A stretch of 64,000 bases of DNA from Leptolyngbyaceae cyanobacterium (lineage in GTDB: Bacteria > Cyanobacteriota > Cyanobacteriia > Phormidesmidales > Phormidesmidaceae): positions 704,001-768,000 of the forward strand of contig CBDHHL010000056.1 in NCBI GenBank assembly GCA_965263355.1, in the 5' to 3' direction. Within the stretch, counting starts at the first letter, position 1. Every line of letters starts with the position of its first letter. The position numbers were made by a program, and so were the translations under genes. The notes below the pieces were generated by a model that saw nothing but the letters and a program-made list of their open reading frames with translations, was not told the DNA's origin and did no database searches. Positions 9,105-54,552 of the stretch are shown here, in pieces.

Positions 9105-9989
9105 ATGGATATTCTATCGCTCCGTTTATTTCTGAGAATCGCAGAGCTGAGTGGGGTCACCGCAGCAGCGCAAGACCTTTCGCTCTCCCCCGCCAGTGCC
9201 AGCGCCCGTCTGGTCAAGCTGGAAGAAACCATAGGGATTCGTCTGTTCAACCGAACGACCCGCGCCGTGTCTTTGACCACCGATGGCGAGGCGTTTTTGC
9301 CCTATGCCCAAGAGATGATTACAACGCTGGAAACGGGCCTCAGTGCCGTTAAAGGGGAGGATGCAAAGGCTAAGGGAATATTGAGAATTACCATGCCAGG
9401 TTCCTTTGGCCGGATGTATATCATTCCCACCCTGGCTGAATTTCATGCCCGCCATCCCCTAGTCAGTCTGGATTTGCGTCTATCCGATGCAGTTTTGGAT
9501 GTTGTTGAAGGGGCCTATGACCTAATTATTCGCAATGCACCGTTGGTGGATAGCAGCTTAATTGTGCGCAAACTGGCCTCTGATCGGCGTATTCTCGTGG
9601 CTTCTCCTGACTATCTCGAACGATATGGCGAGCCGACCACACCTGATGATTTGCTAAATCATCAATGCGTCTGTCTTGCTGGAGCAACTAAATGGGCGTT
9701 TGAAAATGGACAAACGGTAAGCGTTCCGCGATCGTTCGTGATTAATGACGGTGAGGCGCTACGCAAGATGGTTGAGCAGGGCCTGGGAATTGGCATCAAG
9801 TCGCTGTGGAATGCTAGCGACAGCTTGAAAGCTGGGCGGCTAGTCGAAATCATGACAGAATTTCCCCTTACTACCAACACTGCAATTTGGCTCTTGTACC
9901 CCAGTCGCCGGATCATGGCTCCGAAAGTTCACGCCATGATTGATTTTTTGATTGAACAATTCCAGCCTGTTCCACCTTGGGAGGGCTAA
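9105..9989 (+). CDS. LysR-family transcriptional regulator, divergent from the redox operon
   Basis: N-terminal HTH (AAAQDLSLSPASASARL..LE..IG.RLF.RTTR) plus substrate-binding domain. Confidence 0.92.
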   Translation: MDILSLRLFLRIAELSGVTAAAQDLSLSPASASARLVKLEETIGIRLFNRTTRAVSLTTDGEAFLPYAQEMITTLETGLSAVKGEDAKAKGILRITMPGSFGRMYIIPTLAEFHARHPLVSLDLRLSDAVLDVVEGAYDLIIRNAPLVDSSLIVRKLASDRRILVASPDYLERYGEPTTPDDLLNHQCVCLAGATKWAFENGQTVSVPRSFVINDGEALRKMVEQGLGIGIKSLWNASDSLKAGRLVEIMTEFPLTTNTAIWLLYPSRRIMAPKVHAMIDFLIEQFQPVPPWEG

Positions 9990-10187
9990 TAAAGTAGCAA
10001 GTAATATCTCTGTTATATTGCCTCCCTCAATAAATCTCAAGCTCACTTACAACAACCCCACACTCTACAAGATGGGTGGCTTTCCTAATTGGGCTCCCCA
10101 AAACTGTCCAGAGTGTTGACGTTGGAGGAGTTTAGAAAATTATTAATTATTAAAGATGTAAGTGATTAACCTAAAGCTTCTTATGCC

Positions 10188-10197
10188 GCATAACATA
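10188..10197 (+). other. Left (R'') half of an attC site split by the IS110 element
   Basis: GCATAAC(ATA); joins the arm at 12092-12173 to rebuild a full attC. Confidence 0.65.
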
Positions 10198-10471
10198 GGC
10201 CCTGAGGCGGACGAGGTCAATAGCAAAGGCTAAAATTCTTTTTCTGCTTTAGCTTTAGCGCGGATTCAGACGTTCAAAATTGACCTAATAGTCAGGTGTT
10301 CAGGGAGACTGAACCTGCGCTATTAGATGGGGCTGCGTTGCTGAATGATCATTGATACGGGTTAGCTGTTCATAAGATATTTCTCCAAGTGACTGCATAG
10401 AGTGCTCGATCTTGTTTTGGTTGTTACTGTTTTTATTGCTTGTTTTCAAGTGCAATTTGTTCTTCTTGCAC

Positions 10472-11755
10472 TTATTGTTTAGGTTGTTGTTGAACGCCTA
10501 ATAGCTTTACTAGTGGTGATTTTTTACGTCTCAGTGCAGCCAGATATTTCTCCTCGTCATAGGGTACACCATCTTGCCAACAACGCCAGAGAATTCTCCC
10601 CCACTTATAGGCCAAGGCTCGAATCGCTTTTTGATGTGACTTACCCTTTAGTCGTTGTTGTTGATAAAACGCTTGTGACCAAACCGAGCGAGGCCTGGCA
10701 TGAGCAACCCACTCGACAAAGGTTTGTCTTAGAAAGATGGGGCAAGACCAACGCCAATGAACCCATCGCTTTTTGCCACTCTCTTCTTTGACTGGCGCGA
10801 TGCCAATGTAACTCAAAAAAGACTGAGCGCAATTAAAGCGAGTTCGGTCTTCACCAAAGGCCGCTAACAATCGTGGCGCTAAATGAGGCCCAGCCCCTGG
10901 CAATGCCTTAAAAAGTTCTGCATCCGGCAGCGATTCAAATAACGAGGCAATTTGACGCTCAAACACAATCAATTGCGACAAGACTACTTTCAATAAAGCG
11001 ACTAAGCCTTGCATTAACGCTTGGGCTGGAATGGTGATAGCGTCGTCTCGCGTCAAGGGTGGCCCAGCGTCTTGAATTTGCTGAGTTCGCCGTTGAATCG
11101 TGGTTTTGCGAATGATGTGATGGCTACGAAAGAAGTCTCTCAAGACATCAGCTGTAGCAGCTTGAGCCTCTTGTAAATTGGGAAACTGTTCAAGGAATTC
11201 ACAAAACGCAATGGTGTCTTTATCTTCAAACCAGTCGAGCACTTGAGGAAAATAGGATTTGAGTGCGGCGGTGATCCGATTCGTCAGCCGGACCTTCTCA
11301 CCCACTAACATGCGACGGGACTCAACCCATTGTCTCAATGCACGATGCTTCGGACAACCTGATGTCCAGATATCAAGTTTTTCACCATGTTTTTGCATCA
11401 ATTCGACGATCAGTTTGGCATCGATGGGATCCGATTTGGCCCGCGAGGGCTGAAACGCTTTGCGATAGTTCGCGACCGTTCGAGGATTAACGGGCACCAG
11501 CACCAAATTCTCGTATTGACATAGGCCATAAAGGAGGGGGCCGCGTTTCTGCTCCAACCCAACCAGCAACTTGGACTCTCCATAGGTTTTTCGTAAGCGA
11601 TTGACCCAATCTGCAATGGATTGGGGCTTGGATTGAATCGTGCAATGCTCCCAGGTTTCGTTCTGGCAGTCATAGAGCGCAATATCATGTTTACGATCTG
11701 CCCAGTCAATCCCGATATAAGCCGCATATGCTGTTGGACTTTGATTGAGTTTCAT
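10472..11755 (-). CDS. IS110-family (DEDD/RuvC plus Tnp serine) transposase/recombinase
   Basis: IGIDWAD, GLEQ, KSDPIDA, LPGAGPHLA and GIAPVKEESG motifs; 427 aa, intact. Confidence 0.95.
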   Translation of the reverse strand: MKLNQSPTAYAAYIGIDWADRKHDIALYDCQNETWEHCTIQSKPQSIADWVNRLRKTYGESKLLVGLEQKRGPLLYGLCQYENLVLVPVNPRTVANYRKAFQPSRAKSDPIDAKLIVELMQKHGEKLDIWTSGCPKHRALRQWVESRRMLVGEKVRLTNRITAALKSYFPQVLDWFEDKDTIAFCEFLEQFPNLQEAQAATADVLRDFFRSHHIIRKTTIQRRTQQIQDAGPPLTRDDAITIPAQALMQGLVALLKVVLSQLIVFERQIASLFESLPDAELFKALPGAGPHLAPRLLAAFGEDRTRFNCAQSFLSYIGIAPVKEESGKKRWVHWRWSCPIFLRQTFVEWVAHARPRSVWSQAFYQQQRLKGKSHQKAIRALAYKWGRILWRCWQDGVPYDEEKYLAALRRKKSPLVKLLGVQQQPKQ

Positions 11756-11798
11756 TGTGCTAAATTGAGGGTGTTTTTGTTTGACGGAGAGTCTGCCA

Positions 11799-12066
11799 CC
11801 AGTCGCCTTGCGAAGTGATTATGGAAAGGGTTATTTCCCTGCTCCCTGAGGATTCGTTGGGCAGCGATTGGACTGGCTTGAAGGGCGATTCGATATGTTA
11901 GTAGTCATCTTCTGACTGGCGCTGCATAGTCGTCCCCCCAAGCTAGCAGATTCTCTCCTTTCTTGACTCTATGCTTTTTTCCAGATTTAGAACATCTAAA
12001 GGGAGGAGCGATACGATATGTTAGTAGACATCTATACTGTCGTCCAATGCATAGTCGTCTCCTCCC
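11799..12066 (-). ncRNA. Putative bridge/guide RNA: two target-binding loops (12001-12066, 11876-11943) and one donor-binding loop (11799-11876)
   Basis: Three stem / internal loop / hairpin modules. Loop strands match the attC flank and the element ends. Confidence 0.65.
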
Positions 12067-12091
12067 GTTTTTCTATGCTCGTCCCCCCATA

Positions 12092-12173
12092 AATCCCAAT
12101 GCACACCGACCATACAAAGGTTGAATTCTTAGAACTCAATTTTGGTGACGGCGGGTGATTGGGAACGTTTTCT
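12092..12173 (+). other. Remainder of the split attC (L'', central arm, L', R')
   Basis: TCCCAATGCACACCGAC pairs with GCGGGTGATTGGGAAC, with extrahelical bases; R' GTTTTCT. Confidence 0.7.
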
Positions 12174-12393
12174 AGGTTTGTTCTAATTCTTCTAATAACG
12201 TTTCGATAGCTTGCAGCTTACTTTCATACTGCTGTACCCGATAAGTTAACTCATACTTTGCTTCTGAGTCTGACTTAACTGTTAGTTCCTGCTTCAGCCA
12301 CTTTAACTTTTTTCGAATCTCCTGATACTCTTCTTCAAGATCTTCACGTTTTTGTTGAATGCGTCTTTGAGCAGCTGTTGAAGAAAAAGACAT
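12172..12393 (-). CDS. Small coiled-coil protein resembling cyanobacterial effector-associated (EAD9-like) N-terminal domains
   Basis: RRIQQKREDLEEEY..IRKKL..L..EL....D...KYEL...VQ pattern; family assignment from memory only. Confidence 0.35.
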   Translation of the reverse strand: MSFSSTAAQRRIQQKREDLEEEYQEIRKKLKWLKQELTVKSDSEAKYELTYRVQQYESKLQAIETLLEELEQT

Positions 12394-12959
12394 GGTAGTT
12401 GCTCCTAGGGAGACTGGTTCCGCCTGATGGGATGATTCAGCCAAAACGCTTGTAATTCAAGGGATACAGCCGCTTTAGAAGAAGATCATTCAAACCGTTA
12501 CTCTATAGGCCTTTCAGGCATTTTTCCCATTACACAGAGCCAGTGCCACAGATTGCCAAAGAGCTAAATTTGAACAAAGATAATATTCAGAAAAGGAGAA
12601 TCTTTTCTTAAATCAGATAACAAAATAATTATGGTTAGGGTATCCACTCAAGCCGGGAAATTCTGGTTAAGTAGGAATCTAGAATCCAGGAGCCAGAATT
12701 TAGAAGGGATATGGTTTCTGACTCCTGACTTCTGACGTCTATCCTTAGGAAAACTTCCCGCTTTAAGTTGGTACCCTATGGTTATTACCATAGGTTTATT
12801 AAGACGTAGACTGTTGACTGGGTTAAGTAGTGACGCAGAGTTCATACATTTTTGACAGTATCTGGACAATTGATGGGTACAGCTGTCATAACTAGTGGGG
12901 ACACGGTCAAAACCCTCTATATCCTTTTAATTTTTGGGAGTTTTCAATCCAAAAAACCT

Positions 12960-13811
12960 ATGCCCACCCTGTATGTTTCAGACCTTGATGGCACTCTACT
13001 TACTCCCACAGCCAACCTCTCTACTTACACCAGAGACACCCTAAATCGCTTACTTGCCGATGGCCTGCCTTTTACCGTAGCCACCTCCCGCAGCGTTAGT
13101 TCTATAGGCCCTATCTTTCAGGGGGTGTCGCCGCTACCATTGCCGGTAATTGAACTCAATGGTGCCTACATTACTGACCTGGCTACAGGACAGCATTTGA
13201 TTGTTAATGATATTGCCACGGATCTGGCGACTGAAGTGCTTAGCTTGGTACAGTCCTGGGAGATTAAACCGCTAATTTCTAGTGATAACGGTCAAGCTGA
13301 CCATGTGTATTTCACCACGGATGTAAACCCCGGCATCCAATGGTATATCGATGATGCCGACCGCAATGAAGATGGCCGCTGGCACTGCTGTGCCGATCTG
13401 ACACAAATTTTGGATGAACAGATCATGCGGTTTACTTTGATTGATACCAAAGAGCGGTTGACTGAGCTAGAACAGGCGTTGAAAAAACATTTTCCCGACT
13501 GCCTTGATATGCATCTATTTGAAAACCCCTATCAGCCAGACTGGTACTGGTTGACTTTACAAGACCAGCAGGCGACAAAAGCCAATGGTATTTGCAAACT
13601 GCAAGAACTTTACGACCTGCACGATCACGATTTGACGGTATTTGGGGATCACAACAACGACATCTCGATGTTCAAACTGGCGAACGCAGCCGTAGCTACG
13701 GCGAATGCTACCCCCGAACTGCAGAAACATGCAACCGAAATCATTGGTCACCACAGTGAAGATAGCGTGGTGAAATATTTGGAATCCCGTTGGTCAATGG
13801 TGAATGTCTAA
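12960..13811 (+). CDS. Cof-type HAD-IIB hydrolase
   Basis: SDLDGTLL, TVATSR, KANGI, FGDHNND motifs. Confidence 0.9.
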   Translation: MPTLYVSDLDGTLLTPTANLSTYTRDTLNRLLADGLPFTVATSRSVSSIGPIFQGVSPLPLPVIELNGAYITDLATGQHLIVNDIATDLATEVLSLVQSWEIKPLISSDNGQADHVYFTTDVNPGIQWYIDDADRNEDGRWHCCADLTQILDEQIMRFTLIDTKERLTELEQALKKHFPDCLDMHLFENPYQPDWYWLTLQDQQATKANGICKLQELYDLHDHDLTVFGDHNNDISMFKLANAAVATANATPELQKHATEIIGHHSEDSVVKYLESRWSMVNV

Positions 13812-17138: not shown

Positions 17139-17980
17139 ATGAAAATTAAGTACCTTTCTACTCTTATTGCTGCCTCAATTGTTAGTGTTACCACTGTAAT
17201 TGCGCCTACTCAGTTTATTACTGCCCAAGCCAATCCTTGTGCAGCTACTGCCCAAGCTAACCCTTGCGCAGCGAATCCCTGTGCAGCGAATCCTTGCGCA
17301 GCTAACCCTTGTGCAGCTAACCCTTGTGCGGCGAATCCCTGTGCGGCGAATCCCTGTGCGGCTAACCCTTGTGCGGAATCCCTGTGCGGCTAACCCTTGT
17401 GCGGCGAATCCCTGTGCGGCGAATCCCTTGTGCGGCTAACCCTTGTGCGGCTAACCCTTGTGCGGCGAATCCCTGTGCGGCTAACCCTTGCGCAGCTAAC
17501 CCTTGTGCGACAGCAGCCAATCCTTGTGCAGCAGCGACAGCGTCTGATATCCCAGCTGTTTTTTCTGATCCTCAAGCGGACAACAATCTGGCGATCCGAG
17601 GCTATGACCCAGTAGCTTACTTTACAGCTGGTGCACCTGTTGAGGGGAGCAGCAGCTATGAGTATGAGTGGAATGGTGCTACCTGGCGTTTTTCTAGTGC
17701 CGCTAATAAAGCACTGTTTGCGGCTAATCCCGAAACCTATGCACCTCAGTATGGTGGCTATTGTGCTAAGGCCTTAAGTGAAGGCAATATTGCTTCAACC
17801 GTGCCTGAGGCCTGGGATATCGTTGATGGCAAGCTTTATCTAAATTACAGTCTGGATGTGCAGAAACAGTGGAAGGGAGATGTGCCTGGTAACATTGCTA
17901 AGGCTAATGCCCTATGGCCGAATATTCTAAATACTTCCAATGTTGTGTACTACGACACCGTTGGGGCTGTTTATTTCTAG
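17139..17980 (+). CDS. Exported YHS-like domain protein with ANPCA repeat tract (two frameshifts inside the repeat, probably errors)
   Basis: Signal peptide; about 19 NPC units across three frames; AIRGYDPVAYF...PQYGGYCA...VDGKLYLNY domain. Confidence 0.8.
17229..17532 (+). repeat. 15-bp coding tandem repeat (ANPCA)
   Basis: GCNAAYCCYTGYGCN repeated about 19 times. Confidence 0.95.
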
Positions 17981-41792: not shown

Positions 41793-42052
41793 GCAATAAA
41801 AAAAGTTGGCAGGTGTAGATTGTCTATAACTTTTTACATCTCTTGGAGATAACAACTTAAGCAGTTCACCCATATAAACTTAAGCTAGATAGCTTAATCA
41901 GCTAAATAACAACACCATTAGACTAAATGAACATCTTAGCTAAATAGGTAAGTTCGTAACTCAAACGAGACCAACATTCTCTTCGAGAGAATCTCCATGG
42001 GAACAAAAACCTATTTGTAGCTGAGTTGCTCATAACCTTCGAGAACAAGTCT

Positions 42053-42789
42053 ATGAACTTAACAAAACGCTGTATCGCCGAAGCTATCGGTACCATGTGG
42101 CTAGTATTAGGTGGCTGCGGCAGTGCCGTTTTAGCAGCCATCTTTACCGCTGGCGATCTCAATATCGGTATTGGTCTAGTCGGTGTTTCCCTTGCATTTG
42201 GTTTAACCGTTATGACCATGGCCTATGCCATTGGCCATATTTCTGGTTGTCACCTCAACCCAGCGGTTTCTTTTGGCCTTTGGGCAGGTAAACGCTTTCC
42301 TGGTTCAGAACTGTTGCCTTATATTATTGCCCAAGTGATTGGGGCAATTGTGGGTGCTGGCATCCTGCTGATTATTGCCAATGGTCAACCTGCTTTGAGC
42401 TAATCGGCTCAAACCCTCTAGCCACTAATGGATTTGGAGCCCATTCCCCCGGTGGATATTCTCTCCTGGCTTGTTTAGTGACCGAAATCGTCATGACCTT
42501 TATGTTTTTGATGATTATCCTGGGAGCAACAGATAGTAGAGCACCCAAAGGATTTGCGCCCATTGCCATCGGTCTTGGCCTCACACTGATTCACCTAATC
42601 AGTATTCCGGTTACAAATACCTCAGTAAATCCAGCCCGCAGTCTTGGACCCGCCATTTTTGCCGGTCCTGAACTGCTATCTCAAACCTGGTTATTCTGGA
42701 TTGCACCTATCTTAGGAGCCCTATTGGCAGGTTTCGTCTATAACTCTATTTTTGCCCCCAGTCGAGACACTGTACGTGAGCTGACCTAA
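42053..42789 (+). CDS. aqpZ: Aquaporin Z, single frameshift near 42393 (error or pseudogene)
   Basis: SGCHLNPAV and TSVNPARS lie in two frames; adding one base restores [17 protein letters not shown]. Confidence 0.88.
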
Positions 42790-49219: not shown

Positions 49220-49678
49220 CTATGAATCGATGGGCTCAAATAGGATGACATCAACGGATGGCAGCGATTCAAAGGCTTCTAAAATCAGCGGTTTAACGTC
49301 TGACCAGGTCAAGCCACCATTGCCACAACCAAGGGGAGGAATGGCAATAGACTGGATGCCCAAATCTTGAACTTCGTTAATCAAGGCGGTGAGTCCTGAC
49401 TGAATGTCCTCAATCTTGGACTTCTGTCGCCAGTGACGTTTGGTTGGGAAGTTGATGATGTAACGGGGATTGAACAACGTTTCTGTCGCTACGGTGAACA
49501 TATGCCCAGGCTGCACTTGACTGTTTTTACAGGCTTTTTGATAGTACTTAAAGTTTTCTGGAAAGGCTTGTTTGAACTGCAGGGCAATGCCTTTGCCCAT
49601 AATGCCAACACAATTAACCGCATTGACGAGGGCTTCGGCTTCTTCTTCCAAAAGGTTGCCACGTTTTAACTTGAGCAT
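49220..49678 (-). CDS. Macro-domain protein (DarG N-terminal-like)
   Basis: ALVNAVNCVGIMGKGIALQFK, IINFPTKRHWR, IPPLGCGNGGL motifs. Confidence 0.9.
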   Translation of the reverse strand: MLKLKRGNLLEEEAEALVNAVNCVGIMGKGIALQFKQAFPENFKYYQKACKNSQVQPGHMFTVATETLFNPRYIINFPTKRHWRQKSKIEDIQSGLTALINEVQDLGIQSIAIPPLGCGNGGLTWSDVKPLILEAFESLPSVDVILFEPIDS

Positions 49679-49765
49679 TTGACTGTATGCCTTGATAGGT
49701 CTTCAATAAGGCTGCATTTGAATAGGGCACTTACAATAGGAGTTAATAGCTCAAGGCAATCAATA

Positions 49766-50167
49766 ATGGCCCAAATTACGATTGAAGTTCCTGACGAATT
49801 TGCTCAACGTCTAGAACCTTTCCAAAATCAGCTTTCTGAACTCTTTACTCGTTTTATTTCTGCAACAGTACTGAGTAAAACATCAGAAGCAATGGCCACA
49901 TCAACCGATCATGTTGCCTCTCCACCCAAGACCTATCAGGAGGTGCTCGATTTCCTAATTAGCCGTCCCACATCTCAGGAAATTATTGGCTTTAAGGTAT
50001 CCGAGCAATCCCAAACTCGTCTGCAAACCTTACTGCAGAAAAATCGTGATGCGGGGCTTAGCCTGGAGGAAAAAAGTGAGCTAGACCTTTACGAGCAATT
50101 AGATACTCTGATGAGTCTACTCAAAGCTAGAGCTTTTGTAACCTTCAAGCCTGCAACCGAATCTTAG
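49766..50167 (+). CDS. Hypothetical antitoxin-like partner of the HNH gene
   Basis: EVLDFL...PT..EII.F..S...Q.RL..LL.KN...L..EE..ELD pattern; directly upstream of HNH. Confidence 0.65.
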   Translation: MAQITIEVPDEFAQRLEPFQNQLSELFTRFISATVLSKTSEAMATSTDHVASPPKTYQEVLDFLISRPTSQEIIGFKVSEQSQTRLQTLLQKNRDAGLSLEEKSELDLYEQLDTLMSLLKARAFVTFKPATES

Positions 50168-50174
50168 CCAGGGA

Positions 50175-50591
50175 ATGTCCTACATATCAGACAAGCTAAG
50201 ACTCTCGGTGCGCCAACGGGCCGATGAAAAGTGCGAATATTGCTTTATCCATCAAACCTTTTCGATTTACAGCCATGAAATTGATCATGCAGTGGCTATC
50301 AAGCATGGTGGTCAAACCACTTTCGAAAACCTTGTTTTAGCCTGTCTTCCCTGCAACCGTCATAAAGGCACAGACCTAACCAGCATTGATACAGTAACCA
50401 GCGAAATTACCCCTCTCTTCAATCCCAGAACCCATAGCTGGAAAGATCACTTCGAACTACAAAATGGCTATATTTTGGGCTTAACAGCTATTGGGCGAAC
50501 GACCGTTTTTCTTTTGCAACTCAATGAACCGAATCGTCTGCAACTGAGACAAATGCTTGCATCCCAAGGTCTCTATCCAGATTTAACTTGA
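50175..50591 (+). CDS. HNH endonuclease
   Basis: CEYC...HEIDH...KHGG...NLVLAC.PCN.HKG motif. Confidence 0.9.
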   Translation: MSYISDKLRLSVRQRADEKCEYCFIHQTFSIYSHEIDHAVAIKHGGQTTFENLVLACLPCNRHKGTDLTSIDTVTSEITPLFNPRTHSWKDHFELQNGYILGLTAIGRTTVFLLQLNEPNRLQLRQMLASQGLYPDLT

Positions 50592-51628: not shown

Positions 51629-51697
51629 TTAGATGGTCTGTGATTGTTCTTCGGTTGAAAGAGCTAAAAGCTTGGATTGTAAGTCTTGTAAAGTCAT
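51629..51697 (-). pseudogene. Fragment of a TA-type gene (MTLQDLQSKLLALSTEEQSQTI)
   Basis: Preceded by the same leader as the genes starting at 62691 and 63767. Confidence 0.5.
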
Positions 51698-52139: not shown

Positions 52140-54552
52140 ATGCAGGTTTCTAGGAATTTTGCATTTCTCAAGGTTCATAGCTTAGAGCTTGTCAGGCTGG
52201 GGACACTAGCTGAAAACTATTTTGCGAATGATCCGAATACTTGCTTGATTAAGCTGCGGCAATTTGGGGAGCAATTGGCCCAGCTAGTGGCGGCCAATGT
52301 GGGCCTTTACGAGGACCCGAATGAAAGCCAATTTGAACTCCTGCGACGGTTAGAGAATCGTGGGGCAATTACGGGACAAACCACCCAACTTTTCCATGAA
52401 ATTCGGAAGGTGGGTAATCGGGCTACCCACGGGAGCTATGGTGAACATGGGGCCGCACTGAGTCATCTGAAATATGCTCGGATCTTAGGTATCTGGTTTC
52501 ACCGATCCTATGGAGGAGCCCAGCAGTTTAAGCCCGGTCCTTTTATTCCACCCGCCGATCCCCGTCAAGAAACGGCTACGCTCAAAGCAGAATTGGAGCG
52601 CCTCAGGGCAGAACTGATTGCCAGACAGGCAGAACTGACGGCCACCCAGTCCCAGGCAGAACAAGCCCAAGCCCAGGCCCAGGAAGAAGCTGAACTACGG
52701 CAGCTAGCTGAAGACCTTTTAATCGAAACGGAAGCTCAAGCTGAGGAAGAAAAAGCTCAACTAGCCGCACAACTAACCGCAATGCAGGCTAAAGCGGCTC
52801 AAGCCCCAGCTCAAACTATTCAATCAGCCATTGCGACTGCTCAAGTGGTTGAGACGGAACTGGATTTAGATGAACGTGAAACTAGACGTTTGATTGATGC
52901 TCAACTGCGTGGGGCGGGTTGGGACGTTGATACGGAAACATTGACCTATAGAAATGGCACTCGCCCACAGAAAGGGAAAAATCTAGCCATTGCTGAATGG
53001 CCCACTGCCGATGGACGGGCTGATTATATTTTATTTGTGGGGTTGGCTGCGATCGCAACCGTCGAAGCCAAACGGAAAAGCAAAGATGTATCTGGATCAG
53101 TAGACCAGGCCAAGCGCTACAGTCGGGGATATGCAATCAAAGGAAATGAAACCTTACCAGCTGGTCCCTGGGGAGAGTACAAAATTCCCTTTGTGTTTGC
53201 TACCAATGGCCGAGAGTTTTTGCCCCAGCTTGAAACCAAAAGCGGCATCTGGTTTTGTGATGTGCGGCGTCCAGAAAATCTGCGACGTCCCTTGAGAAGC
53301 TGGTATAGCCCAGCCGGTTTGATTGATACTTTGGCCCAGGATATCGATCAGGCCCAGGCGCAACTAGCTCAGGAGCCATTTAACTACGGCTTTGACCTAC
53401 GGCACTATCAAATTCGGGCTATTCGAGCAGTGGAAGCGGCCCTGGCCCAGGATCAGCGCAATCTATTGCTGGCCATGGCAACGGGCACCGGTAAAACCAA
53501 GACCTGTATTGCCCTGGTCTATCGATTGCTCAAGACCAAACGCTTTCGGCGCGTCTTATTTTTGGTGGACCGTACTGCCCTGGGGGAACAGGCTGCCAAT
53601 GCCTTCAAAGATACCCAAATGGAAAGTTTGCAGGAGTTTGCCAAAATCTTTGAAATTAAGGAGCTAAAGGATACAGCCCCGGAGCGGGACACAAAGGTGC
53701 ATATTGGCACGGTACAGAGCTTTGTCAAACGTATTTTGTACCCCAGTGATGAAGCCGAACCCCTAACGGCGGATCAGTACGACTGCATTGTGGTGGACGA
53801 GTGTCACCGGGGGTATTTGCTGGACCGGGAGCTAAGTGATAACGAACTCACCTTTCGAGACTTTAAAGACTATGTCTCGAAATACCGCACCGTTCTTGAA
53901 TATTTTGATGCGGTCAAGATTGGATTAACGGCTACGCCTGCGTTGCATACATCCCAAATTTTTGGTGACCCCGTCTTTAAATACAGCTATCGGGAAGCGG
54001 TGATTGATGGTTACCTGATTGACCATGAGCCCCCCATTCGCCCAGTGACGGCCCTGGCTGAAGACAATATTGTTTGGCAGGCAGGTGAGAATGTTCAATA
54101 CATTGATCCAAAAACCGGGCAGCTAGACCTGATCCATGCGCCGGATGAGATCCGAGTAGAGGTAGAACAGTTTAACCGACAGGTAATTACCCAAGAGTTT
54201 AACCGGGTAGTCTGTGACTTTTTGGCCGATGAAATTGACCCGGAGATGGGCAAAACACTGATTTTCTGTGTGAATGATGCCCATGCTGATTTAGTAACAG
54301 ATTTGCTCAAAAAATCTCTCACAGAACGCTATGGCAGTATCGATGACGATGATGTCAAAAAGATTACGGGAGCGTCAGACAAACCGCTAGACTGATTCGA
54401 CGGTATAAGAACGAGGTCAGTCCTAAAATAGCCGTGACGGTTGACTTGCTGACCACTGGGACTGATTCGACGGTATAAGAACGAGGTCAGTCCTAAAATA
54501 GCCGTGACGGTTGACTTGCTGACCACTGGGATTGATGTACCGGCCATTTGTA
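52140..54552 (+). pseudogene. hsdR: Type I R-M restriction subunit (EcoKI-like), frameshifted near 54390 and truncated
   Basis: ADY.L...VEAKR nuclease, MATGTGKT, DECHRG, GLTATP; LLTTGIDVPAIC in shifted frame, then similarity ends; 70-bp duplication at 54391-54530. Confidence 0.88.

Follow-up and report, generated by a model that had tools for sequence, protein, structure and literature searches.

A stretch of 64,000 nucleotides from a Leptolyngbyaceae cyanobacterium (contig CBDHHL010000056.1, positions 704,001 to 768,000; this whole stretch is referred to below as the window) contains an insertion sequence of the IS110 family, 1,897 bp in length, with three structured modules in the leader upstream of its transposase gene. 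The modules probably constitute a three-loop bridge RNA, with two target-binding loops (A and B) and one donor-binding loop (C), that is aimed at the R' end of integron attC sites and in which loop B serves as an alternative guide, a reading to which a probability of roughly 0.55 can be attached. The component of this reading that places two target-type loops at attC is supported by the modules themselves, by their relatives and by the sites that the elements occupy.

Two target-type modules and a donor loop in the leader

Modules A and B are paralogous and lie in tandem on the minus strand (Table 1), and their 5' strands are of equal length and gap-free in alignment. The 12-mer ACTAACATATCG occurs in exactly two copies in the 64 kb, at 11891-11902 and 12014-12025 on the minus strand (shuffle mean, 0.22; two or more copies in 0/100 shuffles), and the 11-nt repeat TGGGGGGACGA is likewise present exactly twice, at 11930-11940 and 12079-12089 (shuffle mean, 0.00). 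Four copies exist of a shorter motif, GG(R)GACGA(S), one each in modules A and B, one in the left tip of the element and an inverted one in its right end. A covariance model derived from the alignment of 55 A/B-type modules has exactly two matches within the window, which are modules A and B. In that alignment 86.0% of cells are base paired, compared to 78.2% in shuffles, with changes on both sides in 7/19 pairs and a covariation score of 0.236 versus 0.120 in shuffles (0/500 as high; slid controls, ≤0.112). At pair 30/42, for example, 31 modules have A-U and 23 have U-A, such that the A-type and B-type stems differ and stay complementary, and overall compensatory changes preserve three helices in the A/B-type modules. 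The 355-nt leader folds with a z-score of -2.52.

An earlier note on this DNA, made from the letters alone, had described two homologous modules, each a stem, internal loop and hairpin, with outer and inner stems that differ between the copies and still pair, and had drawn attention to the 11-nt repeat. These descriptions are confirmed by the sequence, the covariance model and the compensatory changes across the 55 modules, and on the minus strand the minimum-free-energy structure gives module A the shape that had been proposed for it. The accompanying claim that the two loops prescribe spacings of 8 versus 7 nt is not supported, as the loops are equal in length and natural sites of either type have a gap of 2 or 3 nt; the difference arose because of where the earlier reader delimited the hairpin of B. 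The inventory of loops in the same note was correct for the two target-type loops and overlooked a third module.

This third module, C, has two strands that are both found in the end-to-end junction of the element (computed by slicing), with the matches 3 nt apart. A donor-binding loop is defined by two strands matching the joined ends of its element (PMC11208160), and the assignment of module C as the donor loop is well supported. The 5' strand of module C agrees with the right end of the element in 27/28 loci where both are readable, the single discordant locus (L025) being one base off, and wherever this strand shows a G-to-A change (5/5 loci, all of which belong to one clade) the right end shows it too. 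The module C hairpin has compensatory changes in 4/8 predicted pairs. Module C, downstream of B, is present in every family member, including proteobacterial outliers without A/B-type modules, and in relatives with a single A/B-type module the two together make up the canonical two-loop form. Since the ends of the element are matched by this separate module, both A and B are target-type. Rather than exactly two loops, one target and one donor, the window and 48/100 sources (see below) have two target-type loops and one donor loop.

A search with the transposase returned 59 loci in species genomes, nearly all of them filamentous cyanobacteria (Leptolyngbya and allies; closest, 94-96% identical), and 80 further loci in metagenome contigs. 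Most relatives possess two modules in the leader, ~125 nt apart, each consisting of GACGAC, a variable 5' strand, a short hairpin and a constant 3' strand. Over 100 sources, some of which are the same contig from two collections, the covariance model has 125 matches, with the tandem pair in 48 sources, single modules in 27 and none in 25. Five host genomes have only 1-8 matching pieces each and thus added few sites, and a sample of 151 cyanobacterial genomes yielded two more hosts. In a quick IQ-TREE maximum-likelihood tree of 55 proteins, in which ~10 long-branch rows represent wrong open reading frames (ORFs) and are best disregarded (e.g., L053, L038, L040, L058, L059, L103, L137, L147, L160), 21/22 two-loop rows fall in one clade with a Shimodaira-Hasegawa-like approximate likelihood ratio (SH-aLRT) support of 100. 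The clade with the tandem pair spans ~70% protein identity. The suggestion of the earlier note that the loops arose by duplication is in agreement with a tandem pair that marks one transposase clade.

The only one-loop row nested inside the two-loop clade, beside the group of the window, is L025, from the metagenome-assembled genome REEB459. It occupies an A-type attC arm, yet has kept only a B-type guide, and recombination between A and B probably deleted one module after insertion, which would make this a secondary loss of A. In several elements the A and B guides differ by only one to three positions and change together (L003, L007, L029, L031, L037), a pattern that fits two guides tuned to variants of the attC family of one host. 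Alternatively, gene conversion between the modules could produce it, as in two loci (L019, L037) the module B hairpin is A-type.

Reading of the attC end and fit of the loops to natural sites

An attC site is an imperfect inverted repeat with unpaired bases in its stem, the outer boxes of which end in TAAC and start with GTTA, respectively, and its R' box has the consensus GTTRRRY. In the window, the 3' arm of the hairpin that was hit carries TGCATTGG (12096-12103), followed by a 3-nt gap and then the T shared by flank and element, while the upstream box is degenerate (GAAAAC). In the relatives, an imperfect hairpin of ~70-90 nt located just behind a short ORF provides the left flank with its 3' arm, with a TAAC box 60-95 nt upstream at the 5' end of the hairpin, and the right flank opens with GTTA[G/T]. 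Of 28 related copies, 20 continue after GTT with AG and 5 with AT, GTT itself having been required by the search pattern. Uninterrupted sites of the same kind are present in the host genomes, 4/5 of which have an integron integrase (TIGR02249) above the cut-off, compared to 0/14 control genomes, and empty sites or copies of the element occur 2.8 kb (G003), 5.9 kb (G001) and 11-18 kb (G004) from the integrase gene intI. In the window itself, no intI was detected among 58 ORFs scanned (28 by Pfam and 30 by NCBIfam; the last eight of the 67 picked ORFs, beyond 59 kb, were omitted), and a crude scan of the window for attC returned no convincing second site. Because of the folds, the TAAC and GTTA boxes and the empty sites near intI, the hairpins are read as attC sites, with the insertion point directly before the R' box.

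The earlier note had named attC as the target, which these hairpins, boxes and empty sites near intI support, and had correctly matched the left flank at 12096-12103 to loop A, the 5' strand of which is TGCATTGG. Its description of the site as R''-spacer-L'' stands only as far as attC is concerned, as the site is the L'-R' (3') end, which merely resembles R''-spacer-L'' on the bottom strand. Similarly, of the right flank that it placed at 10191-10197, positions 10191-10194 are flank (the R' box), and 10195-10197 are the right tip of the element. As a separate observation, near-identical attCs with the arm TCCAACGAG are present in at least seven places on two contigs of one host genome (G001:C1 and C5; L223, L233, L245 and others), in part as tandem sites with a spacing of 185 bp.

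The 3' strand common to A and B contains CTAACATA, the complement of which is the right junction, i.e., the last bases of the element, the shared T and GTTAG. The handshake guide of IS621 base-pairs with the donor's left side once strands have been exchanged (PMC11208158), and by analogy the part of this strand that pairs with GTTAG and the T would correspond to a right target guide, while the part that pairs with the tip of the element would correspond to a handshake guide. Handshake and right guide are shared by A and B, which again marks both as target loops. The claim of the earlier note that the constant strand reads the target is accurate for the R' box part, though not for the strand as a whole, which also reads the right tip of the element.

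The left guide in the 5' strand is 8 nt long (T-[G/C]-C-A followed by four variable bases), is identical to the attC arm and stops 2-3 nt short of the T. The geometry of module C is the same (8-nt guide, 3-nt gap and right guide across the joint), and one and the same element occupies both a site with a gap of 2 nt and one with a gap of 3 nt (L166, L168). At alignment position 20 there is G/C variation that is not compensated at the predicted partner (9/55 modules), and the position is therefore assigned to the guide and not to a stem. Loop A is a target loop in the sense established for bridge RNAs, with both strands matching the halves of the insertion site. The sequence at the corresponding position of loop B, TGCAGCGC, is a real attC arm class, represented by the sites of L011, L031, L083 and L169, by the single-loop site L103 and by one empty attC (L192, in G005).

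In the proposed mechanism, module C would act on the donor, its 5' strand equal to 8 nt of the right sub-terminus and its 3' strand pairing across the joined ends. The identical 3' strand of A and B would pair with the R' box (GTTAG), with the shared T and with the terminal bases of the element's right end, the variable 5' strand would read the attC 3' arm through its 8-nt left guide, 2-3 nt before the crossover, and recombination would follow the IS621 scheme. Loop B would be a functional second guide, directed at a different class of attC arm (TGCAGCGC in the window), widening the range of cassette sites available to the element.

Which of the loops chose the natural sites was assessed at 45 distinct sites of two-loop elements, using the 8-nt guides in three possible registers and permuted guides as controls. 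With exact scoring, the guide of loop A matches its own sites at a mean of 5.64 positions (permuted, 4.98) and reaches at least 7/8 in 20/45 sites (8.0 expected), values that 0/2000 permutations attain in either case. When wobble pairs (rG-dT, rU-dG) are allowed, loop A reaches at least 7/8 in 22 sites compared to an expected 13.5 (p = 0.001). The site in the window matches loop A at 8/8 and loop B at 5/8, and it is well supported that loop A picked this site and that it matches many other insertion sites. For loop B, exact scoring identifies L037 and L083 at 8/8 and L011 at 7/8, and with wobble at least 7/8 is reached in 15/45 sites (11.0 expected; p = 0.046), 12 sites fitting only loop B. 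Where the second guide position is C in B and G in A, the site has C in 8/15 cases versus 2/25 otherwise (p = 0.002; after hand correction of two mis-registered rows, 7/15 versus 1/25, p = 0.002). The use of loop B in natural insertions is marginally supported by these results.

Two further observations concern the fate of inserted copies. A remnant at ~1919-1921 kb of G043:C1 (L162/L184) consists of the left tip and module A, joined within the constant 3' strand of A to a GTTAGC flank; its left flank matches its A guide at 10/10 positions and an intact copy lies ~1 kb away. The arrangement looks like a deletion that ran from the 3' strand of A to the right tip, which resembles it. In genome G004, near-identical copies have left flanks common to L052/L056 and right flanks common to L053/L056 and L019/L052, which suggests that copies, or attC sites, underwent exchange once the elements had inserted.

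The role of the second target-type loop

A number of results weigh against loop B as a site-choosing guide, or against a three-loop bridge RNA as such. With exact scoring, loop B matches its own sites no better than permuted guides do (mean, 5.09 versus 5.01, p = 0.29; at least 7/8 in 3/45 sites versus 3.6 expected, p = 0.77), and in the 23 sites that loop A does not explain the mean for the element's own B guide is 6.04 versus 5.85 (p = 0.14). Even with wobble, 11/45 sites fit neither loop. As the association at guide position 2 stems from four host genomes and three lineages of the element, its cases are not independent. For the window-type B guide, a perfect attC target is absent from the four genomes with window-like elements (G001, G002, G003, G043); across five genomes the B-type pattern has 4 matches, of which 1 is an attC (in G005), compared to 17 matches and 9 attCs for the A-type pattern. 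The left guides stop short of the core, unlike those of IS621. Regarding the RNA itself, no Rfam family matched the leader at E up to 1 in the region 9500-13000, in a release (Rfam 15) that may or may not include a bridge RNA family, and 21 RNA-labelled runs contained only ~6% of the words. The RNA run X21 has short contigs, 90-95% alike, over parts of A, B and the gene, which represent soil relatives and give neither strand nor ends.

The sites that fit neither guide may be old, or may stem from insertion on the right half-site alone; 'half-match' recombination has been reported for IS621 (10.64898/2026.08.31.748434). Several targets for the B guide were considered and rejected. An exact B-type target with a 10-nt arm has 1 match in four genomes, inside a coding region, and the looser pattern CCAACG...TGTTA gives counts that are not above those of the reversed-pattern control, such that it served for single contexts only. 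A fixed internal or flanking partner was sought in the element plus 150 nt on both strands at ≥8/10, where only the left flank recurs. The sequences preceding GTTA near intI (L214, L215, L218) are AT-rich and unlike any B guide, such that attI was also dismissed as its target.

The fullest version of the proposal, in which the bridge RNA is naturally multiplexed, with both target loops active, one donor loop and homing to two attC families, is tentative and falls a little short of an even chance. Of the corresponding claim in the earlier note, the two target-type loops aimed at attC stand, and direction of insertions by loop B is plausible and, by the exact and wobble scores above, at most marginally supported. 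If both loops were active, they could also synapse two attCs and rearrange cassettes without the integron integrase.

A different function for loop B would reconcile its conserved, compensating stems with an exact flank match no better than that of permuted guides: it could be a recombinase-binding module (for assembly, stability or regulation), a decoy that titrates the enzyme or the loop of a truncated target-loop RNA. A truncated target-loop RNA acting together with a bridge RNA has been described (10.1101/2025.10.25.684509), and the B guide is far less variable than that of A, with TGCAGCGC present in elements of 19/45 sites. We consider a role of this kind unlikely, though of real weight, as the variable stretch of B sits at the guide position of A and its values (TGCAGCGC, TCCAACGN) occur as real attC arms, two sites match B at 8/8, the B guide and the occupied site are associated at position 2 and the guides of A and B change together in several elements. 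The notion that B is instead a decaying, inert duplicate of A draws on L025, where the single module in an A-type site indicates that module loss happens. It is very unlikely, because the tandem pair is found across the clade (48/100 sources; 21/22 rows of the clade) and because module B has compensatory stems of its own, a 3' strand that is invariant or nearly so and covariance model scores as high as those of A.

Two further explanations would do away with a second target loop altogether. In IS621 a target loop and a donor loop stand in tandem (PMC11208160), and A and B could accordingly represent the target and donor loops of a canonical two-loop bridge RNA; this is the least probable of the explanations, as the 3' strand of both A and B fits the right tip together with the R' box rather than the left end, the right end is matched by neither 5' strand, the separate module C both matches and covaries with the ends of the element, and single-module relatives possess one A/B-type module plus C. 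A variant in which one of A and B served as donor loop, and the conserved tip enclosed a TT core, was rejected, the first part because of module C and the second because the empty-site joint (see below) places GTTA in the flank with a single shared T. Alternatively, the repeats could act as DNA, e.g., as sub-terminal transposase-binding sites comparable to the sub-terminal inverted repeats of IS1111 elements, for which the four copies of GG(R)GACGA(S) (see above) would speak. Three helices preserved by compensatory changes, a match of guide to flank on the strand that an RNA co-oriented with the transposase gene would require and the annotation of the family as RNA-guided make this explanation highly improbable. 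A three-loop bridge RNA with loop B as an alternative guide remains the preferred reading of the leader.

The element, its surroundings and known systems

The limits of the element were set at 10195-12091, with a single shared T, because contigs from three runs represent the empty-site form and connect 10194 straight to 12092, omitting 1,897 bp. One letter at this joint fits both sides, the short side amounts to 29-30 letters and, with one T common to flank and element, limits of 10196-12092 are equally possible; homology to copies at other sites (L001, L002, L016) stops at these same limits. The three runs derive from at most two samples of one study and may be the source of the window itself. 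Their contigs also have loose ends that are flanks of additional copies, and the element seems to be polymorphic in the sampled material, i.e., to have recently moved or been excised, with filled and empty forms co-occurring.

Table 1. Positions of the element, its modules and its flanks in the window
Feature	Position	Strand	Basis or remark
Right flank, attC R' box GTTATGC	10188..10194	-	Empty-site joint puts 10194 outside the element
Outward promoter-like site in right end: TTGACC, 17-nt spacer, TATGTT	10192..10220	-	Consensus scan, 9/12 matches
IS110-family element, entire, 1,897 bp	10195..12091	-	Empty-site joint and homology ends
Transposase / bridge recombinase gene, 427 aa	10472..11755	-	Pfam and NCBIfam profiles
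Module C, donor-binding loop	11810..11858	-	Strands match joined element ends
Module C 3' strand CCATAAT	11818-11824	-	Complementary to joined ends
Module C 5' strand CCTCAGGG	11844-11851	-	Equals right sub-terminus, 8 nt
Module B, paralogous second target-type loop	11875..11944	-	Covariance model match, 78.3 bits
Module B right strand CTAACATA	11894-11901	-	Identical to that of module A
Module B, left-guide position, reads TGCAGCGC	11919-11926	-	
Module A, target-binding loop	11998..12069	-	Covariance model match, 84.4 bits
Module A right strand CTAACATA	12017-12024	-	
Module A left guide TGCATTGG	12044-12051	-	8-mer equals left flank 12096-12103
Left tip of element with sub-terminal repeat GGGGGGACGAG	12077..12091	-	Kept where homology starts, all copies
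attC-like hairpin that was hit, left flank	12092..12172	-	Reconstructed site folds as imperfect hairpin
90-aa ORF adjoining attC-like hairpin	12172-12444		

The transposase is a member of the IS110 family, with an N-terminal DEDD RuvC-like domain and a C-terminal Tnp domain, and scores above the cut-offs of Pfam DEDD_Tnp_IS110 (PF01548; 95.2 bits, E = 4.4e-27), Pfam Transposase_20 (PF02371; 57 bits, E = 2.6e-15) and NCBIfam NF033542, 'IS110 family RNA-guided transposase' (176.6 bits; cut-off, 140). The non-coding region is 336 nt at the 5' end and 277 nt at the 3' end, and modules A, B and C are all upstream of the gene. Compared to IS1111, the IS110 group is described as having the longer non-coding region and the guide RNA upstream and as being without sub-terminal inverted repeats, which are said to mark IS1111 and not IS110 elements (PMC11187229). 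The element has an imperfect sub-terminal inverted repeat, with GGGGGGACGAG in the left end and a near-complement in the right end (10205-10216); the motif also opens modules A and B, the 11-mer of the left tip recurring in full in B, and has an inverted imperfect copy in the right end. At the computed circle junction, the second hexamer of the outward promoter-like site would combine the three terminal bases of the right end with the three that open the left end, and it comes nearer to the consensus. A junction promoter arrangement has been described for IS110/IS1111 circles (PMC11187229), and by analogy the bridge RNA would be made from a promoter completed at the circle junction.

Several features were noted elsewhere in the window. 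At least ~14 tandem 15-nt units (consensus roughly AACCCTTGTGCGGCG) occupy 17232-17539, largely inside a 203-aa ORF with a YHS domain (17369-17980). An aquaporin Z homologue at 42026-42786 is split over two ORFs (42026-42400 and 42478-42786) that correspond to profile positions 2-109 and 137-227, and the gene has been either interrupted or broken. The segments 49223-50588 and 52140-54529 contain a DarG-like macrodomain ORF that is short (152 aa, against a profile of 338 positions) and a type I restriction R subunit (744/1123 profile positions), the ORF of which ends at an exact 70-nt tandem duplication (54390-54529). A 41-nt repeat with a short palindrome is present in three copies, 76-100% alike, at 51694, 62688 and 63764.

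Neither a bridge or seek RNA with two target loops nor an element of the IS110 arrangement aimed at attC was found in the literature, a search that did not extend to the supplements of preprints; such a supplement, e.g., that of a survey of 86 models (10.64898/2026.10.21.760802), may show a two-target-loop RNA. Bridge recombinases are being engineered as programmable genome editors with one target and one donor loop. A clade-wide combination of two target-type loops with one donor loop would mean that the scaffold can accommodate one more guide module and could be a template for multiplexed or dual-specificity designs. The homing of an IS110-arrangement lineage to attC, with a constant guide for the R' box and a variable one for the arm, adds a second RNA-guided route for insertion sequences into cassette arrays, beside the IS1111-attC group, and the flexible gap of 2-3 nt between guide and crossover (L166 versus L168) is a geometry that has not been described for IS621.

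The bridge RNA of IS621 is the closest in its logic, with the RNA in the 5' non-coding end, internal loops in which the 5' strand repeats the left half-site and the 3' strand complements the right one, a separate loop for the joined ends and a handshake guide beside the right target guide (PMC11208160; PMC11208158). It differs in having two loops as opposed to three (two target-type and one donor), left guides that cover the core where those of the present element stop 2-4 nt short of the crossover, and a CT core in place of a single shared T; the right guide here, unlike that of IS621, reads the conserved box of a structured site. ISKpn4 and ISPst6, IS1111 elements with a seekRNA, share the DEDD transposase, insertion in one orientation into one attC end and a guide RNA in the non-coding region, though their RNA is downstream of the transposase gene (PMC11187229), whereas the three modules here are upstream, the IS110 arrangement. 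The 'sequence-structure dual match' reported for ISPpu10 likewise involves a stem-loop in the target beside the base-paired stretch, with a single conserved intergenic repeat as its target and a bridge RNA of two loops (10.64898/2026.03.19.712850). More than one target-loop unit has also been reported to take part in the transposition of CazIS110-1, where the additional unit is a shortened transcript of the same loop (10.1101/2025.10.25.684509), in contrast to the two different, tandem-encoded loops of the element described here.

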